Assembly (NCBI GenBank): GCA_963782915.1
Contig: CAWALK010000022.1
Coordinates: 128,001-192,000, forward strand
Source: an uncultured archaeon
GTDB taxonomy: Archaea; Thermoproteota; Bathyarchaeia; Bathyarchaeales; Bathycorpusculaceae
Reading direction: 5' to 3'
Length of the DNA stretch: 64,000 nt
The position numbers and the translations under genes are program-made. Below, in pieces: positions 32,466 through 41,623 of the stretch. Under the pieces are notes generated by a model that saw only the letters and a program-made list of their open reading frames with translations, was not told where the DNA came from and did no database searches. Numbering within the stretch: position 1 is the stretch's first letter; each line of letters begins with the position of its first letter.

Positions 32466-33215
32466 CTATGCTTTGCGTTTGATGGCTGTGATTATCTGTG
32501 ATATGCGTTCGTTGGCGTCACTGGATTCTGTGAGGTTACCTGTGACGATGATGTCTGCTCCTGCGGAAGCTGCGGCTATGGCTTGTTCTTTGGTTTTTAT
32601 ACCGCCGCCGACGATAAGGGGAACATCGATTGCTTGTTTAACTGCTTGAATCATTTCTGGAGGTACAGGATTTGTTGCACCTGAGCCGCCTTCAAGATAG
32701 ATGAAGCGCATGCCGAGGTATTGGCCTGCCAATGCGTGGCTAGCTGCAAGATCGGGATTGCTGTAGGGAACTGCGACTGCTTTACCTACTTTGCCGGCCA
32801 TTCCGCCGTCTCCAACGATTACGTAGGCCATTGAAATTGGTTCTATTTTGAATTTTTTTATGTAGGGGGCTCCCTTGATTTGGGCGCCCATGAGAAAATA
32901 GGGGTCGGCTGAGTTTAGCATGGACATGAACCAGATGGCGTCGGCGTGGCTGCTTATGCCGTTGTGGTTGCCCGGAAAAAGAATAGTCGGAATATCAACA
33001 ACGGATTTTATTGCGCTGACTACATCGTCGAGTTGTTTTTGAGAAGCAACAGTTGAGCCACCAATCATTATGGCGGCTGTTCCGCTGTTTTTGGAGCTCT
33101 CAGCAATTTTTGCAGCGGCTTCAGGGGTTACTTTCTCTGGGTCGATAAGCGTCATATGGATTGAGCCGTCGGCTTTGATTTTATTCAGCAAGTACCGTTC
33201 AATGGGCCCAACCAT
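32466..33215 (-). CDS. Geranylgeranylglyceryl phosphate synthase
   Basis: HMTLIDPEK, IMIGGS, ILFPG, YLEGGSGA, VGGGIK. Confidence 0.93.
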   Translation of the reverse strand: MVGPIERYLLNKIKADGSIHMTLIDPEKVTPEAAAKIAESSKNSGTAAIMIGGSTVASQKQLDDVVSAIKSVVDIPTILFPGNHNGISSHADAIWFMSMLNSADPYFLMGAQIKGAPYIKKFKIEPISMAYVIVGDGGMAGKVGKAVAVPYSNPDLAASHALAGQYLGMRFIYLEGGSGATNPVPPEMIQAVKQAIDVPLIVGGGIKTKEQAIAAASAGADIIVTGNLTESSDANERISQIITAIKRKA

Positions 33216-33230
33216 TCAGTTATCCTTCAG

Positions 33231-33500
33231 CTACTCTTCTTTGGCCTTAGTTATCGGAGTTCTTTTTTGGTTACCGTAAACTCTGTCTGTTAACATGCAG
33301 TAGACATCTACTTCGCCCTGTGCCTGTTTGACTGTGAATTCTTCTTTCAAACCGCAGCTGCTGCATTGTGCGATGGATCGTCCGCCTTCGTCTCGGAAAA
33401 TTTCTACGCGGACGGTTTCTTTACCGCATCTAGGGCAAGAGAAGAATTTCGGTAAACGTTTCTTTGGAATATGAACTACTTTTTTCCTTCTTCGCCCCAT
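33231..33500 (-). CDS. elf1: Transcription elongation factor Elf1-like zinc ribbon
   Basis: MGRRRKK, FSCPRCG, CSSCG, VDVYC. Confidence 0.9.
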   Translation of the reverse strand: MGRRRKKVVHIPKKRLPKFFSCPRCGKETVRVEIFRDEGGRSIAQCSSCGLKEEFTVKQAQGEVDVYCMLTDRVYGNQKRTPITKAKEE

Positions 33501-33598
33501 ACAAATATCCTTCTACATGGTTTGGATGTGTTCATTAATATTTATGCTTGTGCTTAAATACTTGCCTACTATCCATCACTGTGAGGCTGCGTAGAACC

Positions 33599-34441
33599 TT
33601 GAAGTTAACGCCCGCTGTACTGGACATTGATTTTGCTGAAGCTCAAACAAGGATTTGCCGATTTATCAAAGAATATGTTGAAAACGCCGGAGCCAAAGGC
33701 ATCGTACTTGGATTATCCGGTGGAGTGGACAGCGCAACCGTAGCTGCCCTATCGAGCCTTGCCATTGGAGGAGACAACGTTGTTGCACTACTCATGCCTG
33801 AACAGGAGACGTTTAAGCAAAAAGACGTCGACGACGCCAAAACCATCGCCGACCTGTTCCATCTGCAAACCGTCAACTGTGATATGACCGAAGTGCTGGA
33901 CGGATTCTACAAAAGCATCCCAGCATTCAGCAAGACCGATCGGCTTTGCAAGGGAAATATCAAAGCCCGAACCCGTATGATCTTTCTCTACTATTATGCG
34001 AACAACCAAAATCGCATAGTCGCCGGTACCTCAGACAAATCCGAAACTTACATGGGGTACTTTACTAAATGGGGCGACGCAGCAGCAGACATAACCCCAA
34101 TCATTGACCTGTACAAAACCCAGGTACGTCGGCTAGCCATGCATCTTGGGATTCCAAAGGAACTTGCACTAAAACCCTCTACACCCGCACTTTGGCCCAA
34201 CCAGCTAGCTGAATCGGAACTTGAAATCAAATATGAAACCCTCGACTTGATCCTATATGGCTTGGAACGATTCATGAAACCAGAGGAAATCGCCGAGCAA
34301 CTCAGCATAGACCAAGCCATCGTAGATAAGGTTCAAGCAAGAATACTGTTAAACGAGCATAAACGGCGTATGCCAATGGCCCCTAAGCTTGGGTTCCGAA
34401 CTCCGGGAAACGATTTTAGGCTCCCAAGACACACATACTAA
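33599..34441 (+). CDS. nadE: NAD+ synthetase (synthetase domain only)
   Basis: GLSGGVDS, NIKARTRM, GYFTKWGD, DLYKTQV, HKRR. Confidence 0.95.
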   Translation: MKLTPAVLDIDFAEAQTRICRFIKEYVENAGAKGIVLGLSGGVDSATVAALSSLAIGGDNVVALLMPEQETFKQKDVDDAKTIADLFHLQTVNCDMTEVLDGFYKSIPAFSKTDRLCKGNIKARTRMIFLYYYANNQNRIVAGTSDKSETYMGYFTKWGDAAADITPIIDLYKTQVRRLAMHLGIPKELALKPSTPALWPNQLAESELEIKYETLDLILYGLERFMKPEEIAEQLSIDQAIVDKVQARILLNEHKRRMPMAPKLGFRTPGNDFRLPRHTY

Positions 34442-34454
34442 AAGTGAAACTGCC

Positions 34455-35288
34455 ATGAAATCTAAAATCAAGCTTGCCCTCTGCCAAATAGCGGCTAAAA
34501 GAGAAAACAAAGCTGCCAACTTGGAGAAAATAGAAGAGTTGACCCTCAAAGCTAAGCAGGAGGGAGCTGATTTAGCGATTTTTCCGGAAATGTGTCTCAC
34601 AGGATATGTGCTGCTCGATCAAGTTTATGGTTTAGCCGAACTCATCCCGGGCCCAAGTATCGCCAAAGTGGAAGCTTTAGCCAAGAAAACAGGCATGCAT
34701 ATCATCTTTGGGATGCCCGAACTCAGCGAAAAGACACAAGCCACCGTCTACAACACCGCCGTATTGGTCGGCCCTAAAGGTTTCATCGGCAAATACCGCA
34801 AAATGTATCTCCCAACACACAGCGTATTCGAAGAAAAACGCTATTTCCGTCCCGGGTATGAACCAGCAGCCTTCCAAACAGAGCTAGGCAGCATCGGGTT
34901 AACGATTTGCTATGACGTTTTCTTCCCAGAAGTGTTTAGGCTACCAAGATTGATGGGTGCACAACTCATAATTTGCATTTCTGCCTCACCAGCGGTGCGC
35001 AGAGGCTACTTTGAGATCCTAACGGCGGCTCGAGCCTTGGAAAACACGGCTTATTTAGCGTATGTGAACCTTGCTGGGGTAGAGGATGGGCTGCAGTTTT
35101 GGGGTGGAAGCCGCCTTGTTGGCCCAACAGGGGACGTTTTAGCTAAAGCGAGGTATGATGATGAGGATTTTGTCGTCTGCGAAGTCGATTTTAGCGATTT
35201 GAGGACCGCTGAAACGTTTATTCCTACGTTGCGGGACCTTAGACCCGAGCTTTATGACCAGCTCAAGCGGCTTTCTGAACAAATTTAG
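34455..35288 (+). CDS. Carbon-nitrogen hydrolase (nitrilase family)
   Basis: Catalytic triad motifs FPE, YRK, ICYD. Confidence 0.92.
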   Translation: MKSKIKLALCQIAAKRENKAANLEKIEELTLKAKQEGADLAIFPEMCLTGYVLLDQVYGLAELIPGPSIAKVEALAKKTGMHIIFGMPELSEKTQATVYNTAVLVGPKGFIGKYRKMYLPTHSVFEEKRYFRPGYEPAAFQTELGSIGLTICYDVFFPEVFRLPRLMGAQLIICISASPAVRRGYFEILTAARALENTAYLAYVNLAGVEDGLQFWGGSRLVGPTGDVLAKARYDDEDFVVCEVDFSDLRTAETFIPTLRDLRPELYDQLKRLSEQI

Positions 35289-35292
35289 CACC

Positions 35293-35421
35293 TCACAGTG
35301 TAATCTCCATGTTGGAGAAGGTATCACAGGTGCATCACAGGGCGTGATATCAAGTGATTTAGGGCTAAAATCACGCTTTTTTGGTGACATCACGGTGTTT
35401 CTTCATGCGGTCACATGTGAG
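35293..35421. repeat. Array of 10 TCAC/GTGA boxes (mostly ATCAC)
   Basis: Cores at 35293, 35324, 35335, 35344, 35354, 35371, 35384, 35390, 35411, 35417. Confidence 0.8.
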
Positions 35422-35765
35422 ATGCGCTTGTAAAAGTGTGTTTTAATGCTAGATCAGCAGGTTAGAACTGTGTGCTATTTCGTTAAGAATGTAAAAATTC
35501 GGCGGGTAACAGGTTTGGGGTGTTTGCAAAAGTGCATTTTTTATGTAAAGTTCCGGCACCTTGGACGAAAAAATTACCGAGATTATAGCCTTTATTATGT
35601 TAACTGTACCAAAATACCACCTAATCATCAAACTGTCCCATATTTGGGCTTTGTTTGAGTTTATAGCGTTGATTTGCCTGCATTAATACAGTGGTTTTGG
35701 GGTTCAGAGGGGGGTCTAAAGGATAAAAACTCGGGTTAGTATACAAATCCGTATTCATTTGGACT

Positions 35766-36263
35766 ATGGAGGATAGAGGAGATTTGAAGCTAAAAGACGG
35801 TGTAACAGCATGGTTAAACGGGGCTCTAAACGACCCCATTGTACAAATACTGGCTAAAAATAGCCACTTAACTAAAACACAACTGGAAACTCTACTAATA
35901 AACGTTTTAAGCGAAAATATAGCAGGCAAACAGCTAAAGTACGATGAAAAAGCAGCATTAAGGCTAACAAGGGCTAAAATAAGCCGAGGATCGTTTAATA
36001 GGACGTTAAAACAGTCTAATGAAAACGTCATTAAATCCATCTACACAGTGCTACTTTTAGGTTATTTGGGTGTTTTTGAGACCACAACTCTCGACCCGTA
36101 CCTCGAGATAGCCAATAAACTCCACGAATATGTCGAGGCTCACCAGGATATGCCCAACAAAGAAGAGGAACTAAAAGACCACCTAAAAGTCATAGAAATC
36201 ATCAGAAATGAGCTTGAAACGAGCCTAAAACGGCTTTCTAGCCCATCAGAAGAGCTCCTGTGA
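35766..36263 (+). CDS. Hypothetical protein with Tfx/sigma70-region-4-like HTH
   Basis: LTKTQLETLL...YDEKAALR..ISRGSFNRTLKQSNENVIKS resembles the Tfx-type HTH pattern. Confidence 0.7.
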   Translation: MEDRGDLKLKDGVTAWLNGALNDPIVQILAKNSHLTKTQLETLLINVLSENIAGKQLKYDEKAALRLTRAKISRGSFNRTLKQSNENVIKSIYTVLLLGYLGVFETTTLDPYLEIANKLHEYVEAHQDMPNKEEELKDHLKVIEIIRNELETSLKRLSSPSEELL

Positions 36264-36606
36264 CGTCACAAATCACAGTTTTTCCCATCATTTTTTGTTC
36301 ATTTTCAGGAAGTAAATCACACATCACACATACCCAATATTCAAGGGTTTTTTTGTAAAATAAGCCTAAACTGAACAGTCTCTTAACCCATGAATAAGCA
36401 TCAAGATAAGCCATTATACGTGTTCTGTGATGTGTGACGTCATAGTTAACATGGAAAGATGTCACCGATAACCTTAAATTTCCATGGAGAATACTGTGAT
36501 GTGTGATGCAACCGCTAAAATCACGTGAAATCACGGTAATCACAAGAGAATCACGGTAGCGTCACGATTAAATCACAGGGGAAGAACATCACGGTTGACC
36601 TCACAG
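36259..36606. repeat. Array of 19 TCAC/GTGA boxes, partly phased at 9-11 bp
   Basis: Palindrome TGTGACGTCACA at 36259; TGTGATGTGTGA three times (one inverted); TCAC at 36521, 36531, 36540, 36551, 36562, 36573. Confidence 0.88.
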
Positions 36607-37430
36607 TAGTAATCTTTGGCGTATTATTGGCAGTAACAGCGGTAGCATCGTATGAATACTACCGCCAAATACGCAGGGTCCACAGTGAATTCGAGGCAAC
36701 TCATTTGCAATATGAAAAAAGCCGCCAAGAATACGAGAAAGCCAAAGATTTCATCGAAGATATAGTGCTAAGTTTCGACCGTGAACTAAAACGGGAATCA
36801 GGCAAATTTGACACTATGGTGTCCAAAGTGGAAGCCAGCTACAGCACAGCAGATGCTAGCTACCGAAAAGCCGAAAAAATAGAAAACAAGATTGAGCCAC
36901 TGGAAACTCAGCTTGTCGCCCTTAACCAATCACATCAAGAGATGTCACAGTCTGTCACAGAGAACTTGGCAGAAAATACGCAAAACAACACCAACCTCAA
37001 AAATGAAGTAAACTCTGAATTGTCCAGTTTAGAAGCAAAACTCCAAGACCTAATAGCTACACAGGAAACAATCAAAAACAGAATCACAGGCTTCGAAGAG
37101 CAAATCCAGAAACTATCCGTTGCACCTCCACCACAGGAAACCAGAACTGAAATGGTGCTGCCGGTTGTACCCATCAGACGGGACAAAGCCTTAGCAGCCC
37201 TAACTGACACAGAAATCGCAGTACTGGAAATGCTATCTAAGGAGGGTGCGAAGACTGCTCCGGAAATTAAAGAGAGAGTGCATCTCAGTAGAGAGCACAC
37301 GGCTCGGTTGATGAAGAAGATCTATGAGGAAGGTTATGTGGAGAGGGAAGCGGGGAAGATTCCTTTCCGTTATACGATTAAGAAGGAAATGGAAGCTTTG
37401 CTGCAGAAAGCTGAACCTCCAACAACATAG
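36588..37430 (+). CDS. Membrane-anchored coiled-coil protein with C-terminal winged helix; probable ATC start
   Basis: In-frame extension ITVDLTVVIFGVLLAVTAVASYEYYRQIRR gives one TM helix; long heptad-rich region; LTDTEIAVLEML...APEIKERVHLSREHTARLMKKIYEEGYVER wHTH. Confidence 0.82.
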   Translation: MTVDLTVVIFGVLLAVTAVASYEYYRQIRRVHSEFEATHLQYEKSRQEYEKAKDFIEDIVLSFDRELKRESGKFDTMVSKVEASYSTADASYRKAEKIENKIEPLETQLVALNQSHQEMSQSVTENLAENTQNNTNLKNEVNSELSSLEAKLQDLIATQETIKNRITGFEEQIQKLSVAPPPQETRTEMVLPVVPIRRDKALAALTDTEIAVLEMLSKEGAKTAPEIKERVHLSREHTARLMKKIYEEGYVEREAGKIPFRYTIKKEMEALLQKAEPPTT

Positions 37431-37472
37431 TAAAAAATTTCATTTTTTCTTGATTCACAAGCTGGGCTGTAG

Positions 37473-37520
37473 TGTGAAGTACTGTGAACGGATTGTGAAC
37501 CTTTGTGAAGGGCGTGTGAA
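37473..37520 (+). repeat. Five direct TGTGAA repeats spaced 10, 11, 10, 11 bp
   Basis: TGTGAA at 37473, 37483, 37494, 37504, 37515. Confidence 0.92.
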
Positions 37521-37955
37521 CTACTTTATTATACGTTGTTTAATTGCCTGTGGAATGTTTGGAGCAGTCTTATACTTCAGGCTGTTTGAAGTGCCAGTCC
37601 TCATCAGCATACCTTTTGCAGCCATTCTTGAGAGGTAAGTGGATACTGTGCTTAAGCTAACTGGCTCTTTGAGTTCCTGCTCATAGATTGATTGAATATC
37701 TTTAGAAGAGAACCAAATCAATGGAAAGTTCTTTTGGATAACTGCTTGGACTTTCTCAAAACGGGACAAAGACTTGTCATTAGGCATGGCTGGGCTATTG
37801 GTTACTGTTGGATTTTCACCTGGTGCGCCGCCTAGCAATTCAACAAGATCAAGTAGCCGCAGAGCTTTATCGCGGGTCACTTGACCCTCGAATGCAATGG
37901 TGTATCGATTACCATCGCTATCGAACAGCTCTACGCGCATTTTACGAGCCGGCAC
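37521..37955 (-). CDS. Small protein with N-terminal beta/alpha domain, linker and C-terminal winged helix
   Basis: FSSKDIQSIYEQELKEPVSLSTVSTYLSRMAAKGMLMRTG wHTH signature; GTG start after AGGTG. Confidence 0.8.
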   Translation of the reverse strand: MPARKMRVELFDSDGNRYTIAFEGQVTRDKALRLLDLVELLGGAPGENPTVTNSPAMPNDKSLSRFEKVQAVIQKNFPLIWFSSKDIQSIYEQELKEPVSLSTVSTYLSRMAAKGMLMRTGTSNSLKYKTAPNIPQAIKQRIIK

Positions 37956-38148
37956 TTAGTTACACCTAGGTTGTTCACAACCTTAGGACTTCACACCTTA
38001 TAACTGTGATGGTGAAGCAGGGCAATAAAATACGCTTGATTTATGCTTCTTATTGCTTATTGACTGTTATTTGGATTGTTTCTGGTATTACCAGCTTCAC
38101 AGAAAAGTGAACGGTTAAAAACATTATCTTTACGGGTTGGATTGGGTT

Positions 38149-38733
38149 TTCCAGTAGAAGTCAAGGGGTGCCTCATTCACTGTTAACAGACAGAATTAGG
38201 GTAATTTCCAGAGAAAGGGGCTTGTTAAAGCAGCAGATTTATTGTTATTTCACAGGTATTCACAGTTTTGTGAATGTGAAGTGAAGGCAAACTTGGCAGA
38301 AAAAATTGCTTGGAGACCCTTTGTCTAAGTTCCAAGTTGGCCATGACTTGTAAAGGAAGCTAATCGGTGATTTTCGGTTGTTTTCCCATGGATTTAGCGC
38401 TTGACAGACACCCCTATGTTTCCTCTCGAGGATTTTGGGGCAAAAAAGAAGTCTGGAGGGGCTGAAAAAAGATATTCAGAAGTTCTGTTTAATTTCTTGG
38501 ATAGTAATCATTAATATATATAATTACAATTTACCACTCAGAGTATATTATTATATATAGTTATTATATGGGTGTTAGTTATAGCGACTTTTTTCTCCAG
38601 TAGAAACCTTGGGGTGCGTGTATCTTTGGTTTGCTTGGTTGTTATCGCTTGTTTTTATCTTCTTTTAGGATAGTTGTTGTTCTAAACCAGTTTTTTGTAG
38701 TGTATCCTTTATCTGTTCCACACGAAATAACGG
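38149..38733. other. Probable replication origin (oriC) with ORB elements and AT-rich unwinding element
   Basis: TTCCAGTAGAAGTCAAGGGG 38149-38168; TTCCAGAGAAAGGGG 38206-38220; inverted ORB 38409-38430; AT-rich ~38490-38570; CTCCAGTAGAAACCTTGGGG 38595-38614; mini-ORB 38715-38733; directly upstream of cdc6. Confidence 0.88.
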
Positions 38734-38764
38734 TTGTACCTCTGTAGAAGAGGGCGTGGGCAAA

Positions 38765-40001
38765 ATGGGAAATTCAAGCGTATTAGATGATGTATTCGAT
38801 AATTTCGTTAAATGGGGCAAAGCTCTTCAAAGACAGAGAAGTCCTAAGGCATGATTACCTTCCGGAACGGCTTCCCCACAGAGAAGACCAAATACGACTT
38901 TTGGGTGCCACGGTAGCTCCAGTTCTAAGGGATGCCCGATGCTCAAACATTTTCATTTACGGTAAAACTGGAACAGGAAAAACAGCAGTCGCAAAATATG
39001 TCCTCAGCCACTTGGAATCAAAAGCTAAAGAATACGGTGCCCAAGTAAAATTCTGCTACATAAACTGCCGCATGACTGGCTCCGAATACCGTGTTTTCGC
39101 TGCCCTTAGCCAAAGTTTAGGTTTAACAATTCCCTTCACCGGTTTATCCGTCGGCGAAGTCTTTGACAGATTCCGCTCTGGACTAGACCAATCCCACATA
39201 ATCTTCATAATAGTTCTCGATGAAGTCGACGCCTTAATCAAAGACAAAGGCGACGCCTTCATGTATGAATTAACCAGAATAAACGAGACGCTAAGCAAAA
39301 GCAAGGTCTCTATCATTGGCATATCCAACGATTTGCGCCTAAAAGAATTCCTTGATCCCAGAGTCTTCAGTTCGCTTAGCGAAGAAGAATTAGTCTTCAG
39401 ACCCTATGACGCCGCTGAGCTGCGGAATATTTTGCTTGAACGCTCAAAAATCGCATTCCAAGACGGCGTACTATCCGATTCAGCCTTAAGCATTTCTTCC
39501 GCGTTGGCAGCAGCTGAGCATGGCGATGCGAGACGCGCATTAGACCTGCTGCGAGTAGCTGGCGAGGTTGCTGAACGTATAGGCGCAAAAACCATCACAG
39601 AAGAACATGTTCGTCAAGCTGAAAAACACATCGAACATAACCGAGTTATAGAAGCCCTCAAAAACTTGACCCTGCACTCAAAACTGGTGTTGCTAAGTGT
39701 TTATCATCTCAACAAGCCAAGTGCAACCACAGGCGAAATCTATGATATCTACAATGAATTGTGCGGGGAAATGGGCGCTGGACTCTTAACCCAACGAAGA
39801 CTGGGCACACTAGTCAACGAACTTGACTCTATGGGGCTTGTGAACGCGAGAGTCGTAAGCATGGGCAGATATGGCAGAACCAAAAAGATTCGACTTGAAA
39901 TTGCCCGAGGAATAATCCGAGACGTCTTCGGCACCGACAACCGCTTCAGCCAACTTCTCGAGTACTCACCTAAAACTACGCATAAACACTCTGAAAGCTA
40001 A
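38765..40001 (+). CDS. cdc6: Orc1/Cdc6 replication initiator; apparent +1 error near 38810
   Basis: YGKTGTGKT Walker A, LDEVD Walker B, GDARRALDLLR, GRYGRT wing; ATG 38765 gives MGNSSVLDDVFDNFV in an adjacent frame. Confidence 0.96.
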
Positions 40002-40006
40002 GGCTG

Positions 40007-41623
40007 CTACATAAAATCGAGCACAACTGTCTCCATCGTCTGCAGGTTCACAACGGGCACTTTACCTGGCGTGGGAACCAACCCTAATTTTTCCATGTAA
40101 TCCGTTTGTTCTTGCCAGCCGCCTGAATTTACTACGAGGACCCCGCGGTAGTTGCAGTAGCCTAAGACGTGGATGTGTCCTGCATGGAAGATGTCGGGGA
40201 CTTTGTCGACTACGAGGTAATCTCTGTTTTCTGGAGATAACATTGTTTTTCCGCCATAGAGAGGTGCTAAATGGCGGCTTTGCATGAGTAGGCGCATGGA
40301 TTTCTCTGGGTGACTGTGGTCCATGCCTGGAATGACTGAGACTATGTCGTCTAAGCTTCTGCCATGGTACATGAGGACTTCAACGCCATGTATGCTGAGT
40401 AGGCAGGGGCTGCCGACGGAGTGGATGTTTGGTTTGTCCCTGATTGCGGTTAGGTACCCTTCTGGGATGGCTGGTTGAGGCAGGGATTTGCGTGCTGCAT
40501 CATGGTTTCCAGGCGAGAGAACAATTTCAATGTATTTTGGAACCTTCTCGAGGTATTTGATAGCAAAGTCGTACTGCTTATGCACATCGCGAATTGTAAG
40601 TTCCAACTGTTGCCCAGGATAGATTCCAACACCATCCACGATGTCTCCTGCGACTAAGAGGTATTTTACTCGTCCAGCGATTTCCCGCATTTCAGGTGAT
40701 CCATATTTTCCCCGTAGCCACATTATGAAGCGTTTGAAAGCTTCCTTGGTGAACTTGGTGCTGCCAATATGGATGTCCGAAGTCAGGACAGCGTAGACGG
40801 GTTCCTGTGCCCGCTGGGGTGTCTTTCTGCCTACTTCGGGAAAAATTATGTCCTCAGCCATCAGCAGATTCGTTCTTGTTTTAATGACCGCTGCACAGAA
40901 GACGGTGTCTGGGAGAAGCTGCAGTGCTTTTCTTTTTACCTCTTCAGGAGCTTTCTGCGGAATAAGTATAGTTGCGTTCCCATTAAGGTCTTCAACTGAG
41001 AGTATGGTGTTGTTTTTGGAGTCCCGCTTCTCGGTTAGCATGCAGATGATTTTCATTTTTGTTTTCGGCTGAGACTTTAGCGCTTCAGCGATGGGTGTAG
41101 CTGCCCTAACATCCATTCTTGAACGCAGCAATTTCTCTATGCGTTTGAAGCGGTCTTGGAAGAGCCCCACGTATTCGTCGAGGGTGCCGTTGGAGGTGAG
41201 TTTGCCTGTGGCGTCCTCGAGGATTTTGAGGTCTGAGGGTATGTCTTTGGCGTATGGGTAGAAGTAGCCTGCTTCGTCGGTGGCGTTTATGGTTGGGGCG
41301 GAGTAGTTTTCGGTTTGTTGCTGGGGTGTATATGTTTGGGTGTGTTCTGGGATTGCTTTAGCGTTGGCTTGCTCTTGTTGTGCGATGGCTTTCTGCATCT
41401 CTGCAACCGCTAATTGATGAATAACTGCTACTAGTTTGTCTCGGTCGATAAACATGGGTTTATCATCTAGCGAGGCTAGCTGCAATAGCGCCATGTTTAT
41501 GACGGCTTCGGGGTCCATGGTGTCTGCGTTTTGGATGAGGAACTCAAAGGCTTCGCTGTTAAGCTGATAGCCTGCAGCCATTGTTGCTTCAATTGCTCTT
41601 TGGAGTCTCTCTTGTGTACTCAT
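40007..41623 (-). CDS. polB: DNA polymerase D small (exonuclease) subunit DP1
   Basis: SDIHIGS, AGDIVDG, PGNHDA, YHG, HAGHIH calcineurin-like motifs. Confidence 0.95.
   Translation of the reverse strand: MSTQERLQRAIEATMAAGYQLNSEAFEFLIQNADTMDPEAVINMALLQLASLDDKPMFIDRDKLVAVIHQLAVAEMQKAIAQQEQANAKAIPEHTQTYTPQQQTENYSAPTINATDEAGYFYPYAKDIPSDLKILEDATGKLTSNGTLDEYVGLFQDRFKRIEKLLRSRMDVRAATPIAEALKSQPKTKMKIICMLTEKRDSKNNTILSVEDLNGNATILIPQKAPEEVKRKALQLLPDTVFCAAVIKTRTNLLMAEDIIFPEVGRKTPQRAQEPVYAVLTSDIHIGSTKFTKEAFKRFIMWLRGKYGSPEMREIAGRVKYLLVAGDIVDGVGIYPGQQLELTIRDVHKQYDFAIKYLEKVPKYIEIVLSPGNHDAARKSLPQPAIPEGYLTAIRDKPNIHSVGSPCLLSIHGVEVLMYHGRSLDDIVSVIPGMDHSHPEKSMRLLMQSRHLAPLYGGKTMLSPENRDYLVVDKVPDIFHAGHIHVLGYCNYRGVLVVNSGGWQEQTDYMEKLGLVPTPGKVPVVNLQTMETVVLDFM

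Follow-up and report, generated by a model that had tools for sequence, protein, structure and literature searches.

What is encoded by an archaeal gene that lies beside a presumed replication origin (oriC), where does its translation begin, and could its product hold the origin region at the membrane? These questions arise in a 64,000-nucleotide stretch of DNA from an uncultured Bathyarchaeia archaeon (here named the window; GenBank assembly GCA_963782915.1, contig CAWALK010000022.1, positions 128,001 to 192,000), which belongs to a 3.28-Mb assembly of 25 contigs that is 93.5% complete. The gene was called in the list of open reading frames (ORFs) at positions 36627 to 37430 of the plus strand, with a TTG start and a product of 267 amino acids. 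Comparison with its relatives revealed that the coding sequence extends further upstream and most likely begins at an ACG codon, so that the product combines an N-terminal transmembrane (TM) helix, a long helical stalk, and a C-terminal winged helix-turn-helix (wHTH) domain. The gene (here named the TM/wHTH gene) is present in a single copy in the source genome. We tentatively propose, as a possibility still far from assured, that the ACG-started protein binds TCAC[AG] boxes, limits its own synthesis, and holds origin-proximal DNA at the membrane.

In frame upstream of the called TTG, positions 36588 to 37427 translate as ITVDLTVVIFGVLLAVTAVASYEYYRQIRR..., and the frame after the preceding stop reads SQENHGSVTIKSQGKN-ITVDLTVVIFGVLLAVTAVASYEYYRQIRR, with no ATG, GTG, or TTG between that stop and TTG 36627 in the window sequence. 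The initial annotation had pointed out this peptide, with ATC 36588-36590 lying within ATCACG downstream of AGGGGAAG, and had described a full TM helix followed by positive residues, about 150 heptad-rich residues, a proline linker, and a terminal wHTH; each of these elements was recovered in our analysis. Kyte-Doolittle hydropathy in 19-residue windows (KD19) peaked at 2.42 for residues 1 to 19 and reached at most 0.68 outside residues 1 to 40. The helix is preceded by Asp and followed by RQIRR. Positive residues flanking a membrane helix mark its cytoplasmic side (positive-inside rule), and since they follow the helix here, the rod and the wHTH would be cytoplasmic. Judged from the sequence, the protein would thus be a single-pass protein with ~3 residues outside, one TM helix, and the remainder in the cytoplasm. 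AlphaFold2 and hydropathy revealed no external domain beyond these ~3 residues, as the initial annotation had also held.

The AlphaFold2 model, built from a 40-row alignment (mean predicted local distance difference test score [pLDDT], 83.5), shows a continuous helix over residues 2 to 176 (pLDDT mostly >90), disorder over residues 177 to 197, and a winged helix over residues 199 to 273, with helices at 207-219, 224-231, and 235-248 and strands at 251-254 and 261-264. Hydrophobic power at a period of 3.5 was 1.52 for residues 28 to 176, compared to 0.19 ± 0.18 for shuffled sequences, of which 1 in 2,000 scored as high. If straight, the modeled stalk of ~150 residues would measure roughly 23 nm by our own arithmetic. 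Residues 205 to 264 passed the Pfam cut-offs for MarR (PF01047; 29.4 bits, cut-off 24.6) and TrmB (PF01978; 27.3 bits, cut-off 25.6), and HTH_27 also matched the wHTH (24.0 bits, cut-off 22.2). Foldseek aligned the wHTH with MarR-family structures at 1.6 to 2.8 Å over 72 to 83 columns (E ~4-7e-4), including PDB 3bj6 at a root-mean-square deviation of 1.7 Å over 72 columns. A sequence profile search of the PDB returned just compositional coiled-coil matches (chemoreceptors, tropomyosin), and when only the wHTH served as query, the MarR matches were weak (best E, 0.002). A single prediction of a full-length two-copy complex scored 0.17 (mark, 0.42) and weighs neither way on dimerization. In three metatranscriptome runs, next to none of the sampled sequence words were present.

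To what extent the helix is translated was judged from its conservation. A word-indexed search yielded 2,654 relatives of the protein, and the best 80 of 534 stretches with relatives in a genome scan were taken as close loci (L001 to L080); a few oddly labeled bins aside, these relatives are all Bathyarchaeota/Bathyarchaeia. The N terminus, (I/S)TVD(L/F) followed by the hydrophobic helix and YEYYRQIR, is open and conserved in all 80 close loci without stops or frameshifts, and the helix is conserved with signs of coding selection across 160 Bathyarchaeia loci. In the 64 loci in register, the 19 codons that follow the proposed start had a summed entropy of 19.0, 9.4, and 24.7 bits at codon positions 1, 2, and 3, whereas an upstream stretch of equal length was flat (28.9, 29.8, and 29.9 bits); this pattern is the signature of a translated hydrophobic segment. 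Nevertheless, 55 of the 74 sequences analyzed lack an ATG, GTG, or TTG that would preserve the helix, and 18 of them have no canonical start at all before the YEYY motif. In these 18, the next in-frame Met follows only after the nearly invariant block EYEKAKDFxEDIVLSFDRELKRE, as seen by eye in the alignment. Since the helix is conserved and canonical starts are missing to this extent, a noncanonical start is required.

These data make it hard to credit that translation begins at TTG 36627, as the ORF callers say, yielding a soluble coiled-coil wHTH protein whose helix is never made. This TTG is the first canonical start, and the public protein clusters P0002 and P0003 are likewise annotated from inside the helix ('MAVTAVAS...'). 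However, the TTG position is not conserved, the 18 sequences could not be started in this way, substitutions in the helix are coding-like, and distant relatives as well as Nitrosopumilaceae encode the helix behind an ATG. Other public proteins, among them P0004 and P0009, run upstream as 'MCDATVK...KSQGEN'. Their additional residues are translated DNA boxes (KS[QR] from AAATCAC[AG]G, IT from ATCAC, and NH from AATCAC) and vary through indels and stops among relatives. The public gene calls for the family are thus wrong at the 5' end, some being cut inside the helix and others extended through translated boxes. The conserved pseudo-peptide 'MCDAT(V/A)K' of P0004, P0009, P0013, and P0045 corresponds to the translated box array GTGATGTGTGATGCAAC; the window copy (36499-36528) is out of frame and meets a TGA after nine codons, and some relatives' gene calls extend through it.

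We consider ACG 36591 the most likely initiation codon, a conclusion drawn from sequence comparison. Among the 80 close loci and the window, the homologous codon is ACG in 66 of 81 sequences, ATG in 8, TTG in 6, and GTG in 1. Of 73 sequences scored for the codon before it, 57 have ATC and the others AGC, ATT, AGT, GAC, ACC, GTC, AAG, AAA, or a stop. A TAA stands directly before the ATC in L037, and in L079 a TAG directly precedes an ATG that occupies the ACG position. The distant set, 80 Bathyarchaeia loci with 30 to 52% identity, mostly begins with M-[VI]-[DE] and the helix at the same place, using canonical codons: an automatic count found ATG, GTG, or TTG zero to six codons before the helix in 72 of 80 loci, and inspection by eye showed that in seven of the remaining eight a canonical codon coincides with the beginning of the helix or lies just within it, the last (L135) being cut by the locus end. 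As side observations, an AGG in L101 takes the place of the start ATG of its relative L099, and a CTG in L106 that of the TTG of L155, with a canonical codon a few codons away in both cases.

The initial annotation had placed the start at ATC 36588, one codon earlier and inside an ATCAC box. The overlap of start and box stands (ATC precedes the start in the 57 sequences mentioned), whereas the comparative data favor ACG over ATC as the start itself, making the protein one codon shorter. That ATC 36588 or another near-cognate codon is used instead, which would change the protein by one residue, appears very improbable to us. Of the 65 ACG loci scored, 56 have ATC or ATT ahead of the ACG, and in the window the GGGG run ends 6 nt before ATC. 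Against this, the preceding codon is AGC, AGT, GAC, ACC, or GTC in 9 of these 65 loci, where no canonical or AUH-type start is possible, and ATG, GTG, or TTG substitutes are found at the ACG position and never at the ATC position. Moreover, ATG-start relatives carry a Shine-Dalgarno (SD)-like motif 8 to 9 nt upstream, the same spacing as for ACG.

SD-like runs (GGGG, GAGG, GGAGG, or GGTGA) precede ACG, and in 49 of 66 ACG loci the 20 nt upstream contain a stretch of 4 nt or more that matches the SD complement exactly, compared to 512 of 1,620 random positions. The anti-SD sequence of this archaeon was assumed to be the generally accepted one, as a motif expected near the 16S rRNA 3' end had no match in the assembly. 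At the homologous place, L076 has AATCACAGGGGAAGAAAAA-ATG-GTA-GAC and the window AATCACAGGGGAAGAACATC-ACG-GTT-GAC; since the same motif stands 8 nt ahead of the ATG in L076, its spacing fits a start at ACG. We also considered whether TAAATCAC could be the TATA box for a leaderless mRNA with ACG at its 5' end, and rejected this because it lies only ~20 nt upstream with the SD-like motif in between. The operator-type box may hold ACG in place of ATG, because ATG variants destroy the TCAC core.

Homologues were also found beyond the close relatives. Of 301 genomes of the phylum searched with a profile, 207 gave a match, among them 40 of the 44 that belong to the same class and all 43 of one family. 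Among eight regions sampled from genomes of other classes, six contained a polymerase subunit, Orc1, a homologue of the 144-amino-acid neighbor, and a wHTH protein of 189 to 261 amino acids with an N-terminal helix (KD19, 2.33 to 2.58), a helical stretch that is short in some and long in others, and REH[TI][SA]R in its wHTH. The named relatives of one of these proteins belong to Nitrosopumilus, Nitrosarchaeum, and other Nitrosopumilaceae. For this family, 80 loci were kept of 111 stretches encoding a relative, and the N-terminal helix was present in all 79 that were scored, here with canonical start codons. A lack of the N-terminal helix in homologues, which would have spoken against the initial annotation, is thus not seen across Bathyarchaeia and Nitrosopumilaceae; the helix is missing from two of the eight remote homologues of other lineages. 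Throughout the family, down to 23% overall identity, the recognition helix is invariably REHT[AS]R.

Counts of the box core revealed that the arrays upstream of the TM/wHTH gene and of its neighbor orf165 are exceptional in the genome. The box consensus is [AG]TCAC[AG]. The frequency of TCAC/GTGA across the 3.28-Mb assembly is 5.2 per kb, and 200-bp segments taken in 50-bp steps contain 1.05 copies on average and 13 at most. Only six segments assembly-wide contain at least nine copies, and all of them lie in 35201-35500 or 36251-36700. The arrays are found at the same places in 79 to 80 close loci, at 2.3 to 3.7 boxes per 50 bp compared to a mean of 0.40. Among boxes on the same strand in these loci, a spacing of 11 nt is commonest (113 cases), followed by 7 nt (89 cases), and the commonest inverted arrangement is GTGA-N2-TCAC (161 cases). 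The palindrome ATCAC-N5-GTGAT at 35334 is the sole copy in the genome; a palindrome resembling the Thermococcales glycolytic motif (TGM) was rejected as the core site, being present in just 22 of 80 close loci. The boxes recur in Nitrosopumilaceae, where the 300 bp upstream of the gene contain 2.8 to 5.5 TCAC/GTGA per 100 bp and other positions mostly <1 (62 loci with full flanks). In this set (L181 to L260), the count peaks a second time, at 3.9 per 100 bp, within the coding sequence at +400 to +500 of the gene, which may reflect codons of a conserved peptide or real internal sites.

Table 1. Features of the locus (positions within the window)
Feature	Position	Strand	Basis or remark
Second array, ATCAC[AG], upstream of orf165	35293..35420		includes ATCAC-N5-GTGAT, 35334-35348
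orf165, conserved upstream neighbor	35766..36263	+	all-helical (predicted), no family
Array of ~20 TCAC[AG] boxes, both strands, upstream of and into the TM/wHTH gene	36259..36605		sequence counts
Palindrome TGTGACGTCACA, 12 bp	36259-36270		within 5' array
Eight same-strand boxes	36521-36601		spacings 10, 9, 11, 11, 11, 16, 12 nt
Purine-rich SD-like AGGGGAAG	36577..36584	+	GGGG ends 9 nt before ACG
ATCACG box holding the start codon (ATC, 36588-36590)	36588..36593	+	sequence
Proposed ACG initiation codon	36591..36593	+	homologous codons in 81 sequences
Revised coding sequence, TM/coiled-coil/wHTH protein	36591..37430	+	279 amino acids, ACG start, TAG stop
TM helix LTVVIFGVLLAVTAVASY	36600..36653	+	KD19 2.42; codon-position entropy
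Predicted cytoplasmic heptad-periodic helix (coiled-coil stalk)	36654..37115	+	AlphaFold2, periodicity
Pro-rich disordered linker	37116..37181	+	pLDDT <50, residues 176-197
MarR/TrmB-type wHTH	37182..37406	+	Pfam, AlphaFold2, Foldseek
Recognition helix SREHTARLMKK	~37290-37331	+	within wHTH
Six TTCACA boxes between convergent 3' ends	37455..37520		five on minus strand, spaced 10/11/10/11 nt
144-amino-acid neighbor, weak wHTH signal	37521..37955	-	Penicillinase_R E 6e-4, below cut-off
Inferred oriC spacer, 831 bp	37956..38786		origin recognition box (ORB)-like repeats, AT-rich stretch, TTCACA boxes
Orc1/Cdc6 initiator gene	38787..40001	+	Cdc6_C E 1e-23, Cdc6_lid E 3e-23

The position beside oriC given in the initial annotation agrees with the gene content and with the spacer upstream of the Orc1/Cdc6 gene. 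Two ORB-like 25-mers (38147-38171 and 38593-38617; direct, 80% alike, 446 bp apart) flank an AT-rich stretch at ~38500-38570, and by the usual anatomy of archaeal origins we take such repeats with an AT-rich stretch to mark oriC. Shorter ORB look-alikes lie near 38207 and, inverted, near 38449. The cumulative GC skew has its maximum at ~40 to 44 kb, which agrees loosely with an origin near 38 kb. Genes named in 32466-41623 include those for PcrB, an Elf1-like zinc ribbon protein, NAD synthase, a CN hydrolase, orf165, the TM/wHTH protein, the 144-amino-acid protein, Orc1, and a polymerase B subunit. The order orf165, TM/wHTH gene, 144-amino-acid gene (minus strand), spacer, and orc1 is kept in the close loci: orf165 was found in 79, the 144-amino-acid gene in 77, and Orc1 in 74 of the 80. 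The corresponding numbers for the 80 distant loci are 78, 74, and 71, so that 157 of all 160 Bathyarchaeia loci have orf165 and 145 have Orc1; some others, L067 and L073 among them, end before the place of orc1. In six of the eight other-class regions, too, orf165, the TM/wHTH gene, the 144-amino-acid gene, and orc1 are found together, and the gene order recurs in Nitrosopumilaceae along with the membrane helix and the boxes. Several loci (L007, L052, L062, L066, L068, L080, and many of L081 to L160) carry an insert of ~1.3 to 3.3 kb between the TM/wHTH gene and the 144-amino-acid gene, which is absent from the window.

Which protein binds the arrays has to be asked, as they might belong to orf165, the 144-amino-acid wHTH protein, or Orc1/Cdc6, the anchored protein being merely a regulated target or binding elsewhere or nonspecifically. 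We regard this as rather unlikely. In the close loci, orf165 and the 144-amino-acid protein are at least as conserved as the TM/wHTH protein (75 to 98% compared to 48 to 94% identity), and both co-occur with the arrays in the two classes; orf165 retains 36 to 39% identity in the other-class genomes. A second box type, TTCACA, differs from ATCAC[AG] and is also found on the oriC side upstream of the 144-amino-acid gene (37975-38285). Also, the remote locus L180, without a detectable orf165 or 144-amino-acid homologue, has an HTH-like ORF upstream again. Conversely, orf165 fell into no family of Pfam or NCBIfam, and its fold matched nothing informative: its predicted structure is all-helical (pLDDT, 81.8; predicted template modeling score, 0.69), the best Foldseek E value was 0.66, and VIA-align matched a C-terminal helical hairpin only (Z ~8 or below). 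The only Pfam DNA-binding domain above threshold at the locus is the wHTH of the TM/wHTH protein, and the recognition helix is invariant wherever boxes occur. Because of this invariance, and because the boxes accompany the gene in another class as well and TrmB-family proteins read TATCAC half-sites, the TM/wHTH protein is our preferred candidate for the box binder. As to the TTCACA array at 37455-37520, it is not general (no box in 37 of 80 close loci, at least three in 15 of 80), and between convergent gene ends it is not in a promoter position.

For the proposed tether, we infer dimerization, box binding by this protein, repression, and tethering. The stalk would pair the winged helices, and linkers of ~20 residues would let these reach half-sites of either orientation. 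The paired winged helices would bind the TCAC[AG] boxes, with their ~11-bp phasing, at the promoters of the gene itself and of orf165. By covering the promoter, leader, and start of its own gene, the protein would repress it, and the weak ACG would add to this, leaving very few molecules per cell. As the protein would be fixed in the membrane and its sole sites lie 1 to 3 kb from oriC, origin-proximal DNA would sit at the membrane. The initial annotation had already suggested a DNA-to-membrane tether under the control of the array binder, and the data are compatible with this suggestion.

Several observations weigh against this tether. The boxes lie in promoter regions, so autoregulation alone accounts for them, and two other conserved small proteins encoded beside the arrays could be the binders. 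Since the whole block, including unrelated housekeeping genes (for NAD synthase, CN hydrolase, and PcrB), is syntenic in Bathyarchaeia, proximity to oriC within the class could be inherited gene order. The two remote homologues without the hydrophobic helix (L179 and L180; KD19, 0.38 and 0.87) keep 10 and 7 upstream boxes, and anchoring would therefore not be essential to the core function of the family. The stalk has ~150 residues here, ~110 in distant Bathyarchaeia, and ~40 to 60 in Nitrosopumilaceae. The invariance of ACG may partly reflect its membership in a DNA box, and ACG initiation in archaea was not found in the literature searched (supplementary files aside). DNA binding, dimerization, membrane insertion, and expression of the protein are predictions.

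A serious rival, which we rank above a different binder and consider possible if not probable, is that the anchored wHTH protein is only a local transcription factor that represses itself and orf165 without positioning the origin. Boxes covering the promoter, leader, and start of the TM/wHTH gene and the region upstream of orf165, a wHTH of the MarR/TrmB regulator type, helix-less remote homologues that keep their boxes, and a stalk of unconserved length all fit such a regulator, whose anchor might, with similar reserve, serve proteolytic release, sensing of the membrane state, or limited diffusion. In contrast, the protein lacks a sensor domain and has hardly any residues outside the cell, the sites occur at a single genome locus beside oriC, and the gene trio stays by orc1 in two classes whose other surrounding gene order differs.

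Comparison with known systems revealed partial likenesses. TrmBL1/Tgr of the TrmB family read TATCAC-N5-GTGATA, the TGM, and the family's regulators have a C-terminal sugar- or effector-binding domain (PMC4158304). The wHTH described here passes the Pfam TrmB cut-off and the box core ATCAC matches the TGM half-site, whereas Pfam revealed no sugar-binding effector domain and the protein ends ~7 residues past the wHTH. Unlike in TrmBL1/Tgr, the wHTH comes last in the protein, after a membrane helix and a stalk, and the sites form mixed-orientation arrays with ~11-bp phasing at one locus rather than a regulon-wide set. RacA is an origin-membrane anchor, and the layout that it shares with RicO, a membrane element plus a DNA-binding domain, is also predicted for the TM/wHTH protein by its hydropathy and wHTH. 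RicO of Staphylococcus aureus was shown by experiment to bridge origin and membrane (bioRxiv 10.64898/2026.03.06.710092). Both proteins would combine a DNA-binding domain for an origin-proximal motif with a membrane-binding element, the function here being a proposal, and the likeness is one of working principle. RicO, from a bacterium, carries its DNA-binding domain at the N terminus and has an amphipathic helix at the C terminus instead of a TM helix.

AspA of pNOB8, an archaeal plasmid centromere binder (PDB 5k5q/4rs8), matched in Foldseek with an E value of ~8e-4 and 25% identity, no better than generic MarR matches. Canonical MarR proteins have ~140 amino acids, and helices flanking their wHTH form the dimer and the ligand pocket. 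With MarR regulators (PDB 3bj6, 2a61, 3bpx) the TM/wHTH protein has the winged-helix fold and a Pfam MarR score above cut-off in common; only the ~75-residue wHTH core is alike, the flanks being a disordered linker and the C terminus, and the remainder a long helix. ParR-parC and TubR-tubC consist of a centromere-binding protein and iteron arrays, which resemble the phased short repeats here, possibly coated by a small DNA-binding protein. Unlike in plasmid partition systems, no gene for a ParA/ParM/TubZ-type partition NTPase or an adaptor is among the ten genes named in 32466-41623. ToxR/CadC-type regulators consist of an N-terminal cytoplasmic DNA-binding domain, a TM helix, and an external sensor; here the order is reversed, TM helix first and wHTH last, and ~3 residues are external. 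Weak start codons are known from AUU of E. coli infC and from ACG starts in eukaryotes and viruses. As in these cases, a putative near-cognate start codon is kept by selection at a regulatory gene; unlike infC and the others, the gene is archaeal, and its ACG is embedded in an operator-type DNA box.

The TM/wHTH family and Bathyarchaeia origins were not found described in the same literature. While the domain families are ordinary, their combination, its class-spanning conservation on the oriC side, the private arrays, and the ACG start within an operator box are undescribed in the literature found. The locus also contributes a well-controlled comparative example of probable initiation at ACG within one archaeal class, with a start codon that appears to be held partly by an overlapping DNA operator box. 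More broadly, and in our view doubtfully, the protein could be the DNA-binding arm of an undescribed origin-membrane attachment system common to Bathyarchaeia and ammonia-oxidizing Nitrososphaeria. Made in cis at a very low level from the operator-buried ACG, it would coat the phased oriC-side TCAC arrays and fix the newly replicated origin region to the membrane for positioning, segregation, or control of re-initiation. To our knowledge, it is not known how Bathyarchaeia and ammonia-oxidizing archaea position or segregate their chromosomes. Nitrosopumilaceae include cultured members, and since homologues exist there, chromatin immunoprecipitation sequencing, cell fractionation, and imaging are feasible. 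One conserved gene with private DNA sites 1 to 3 kb from oriC is thus a concrete, testable candidate for chromosome positioning or segregation in these archaea.

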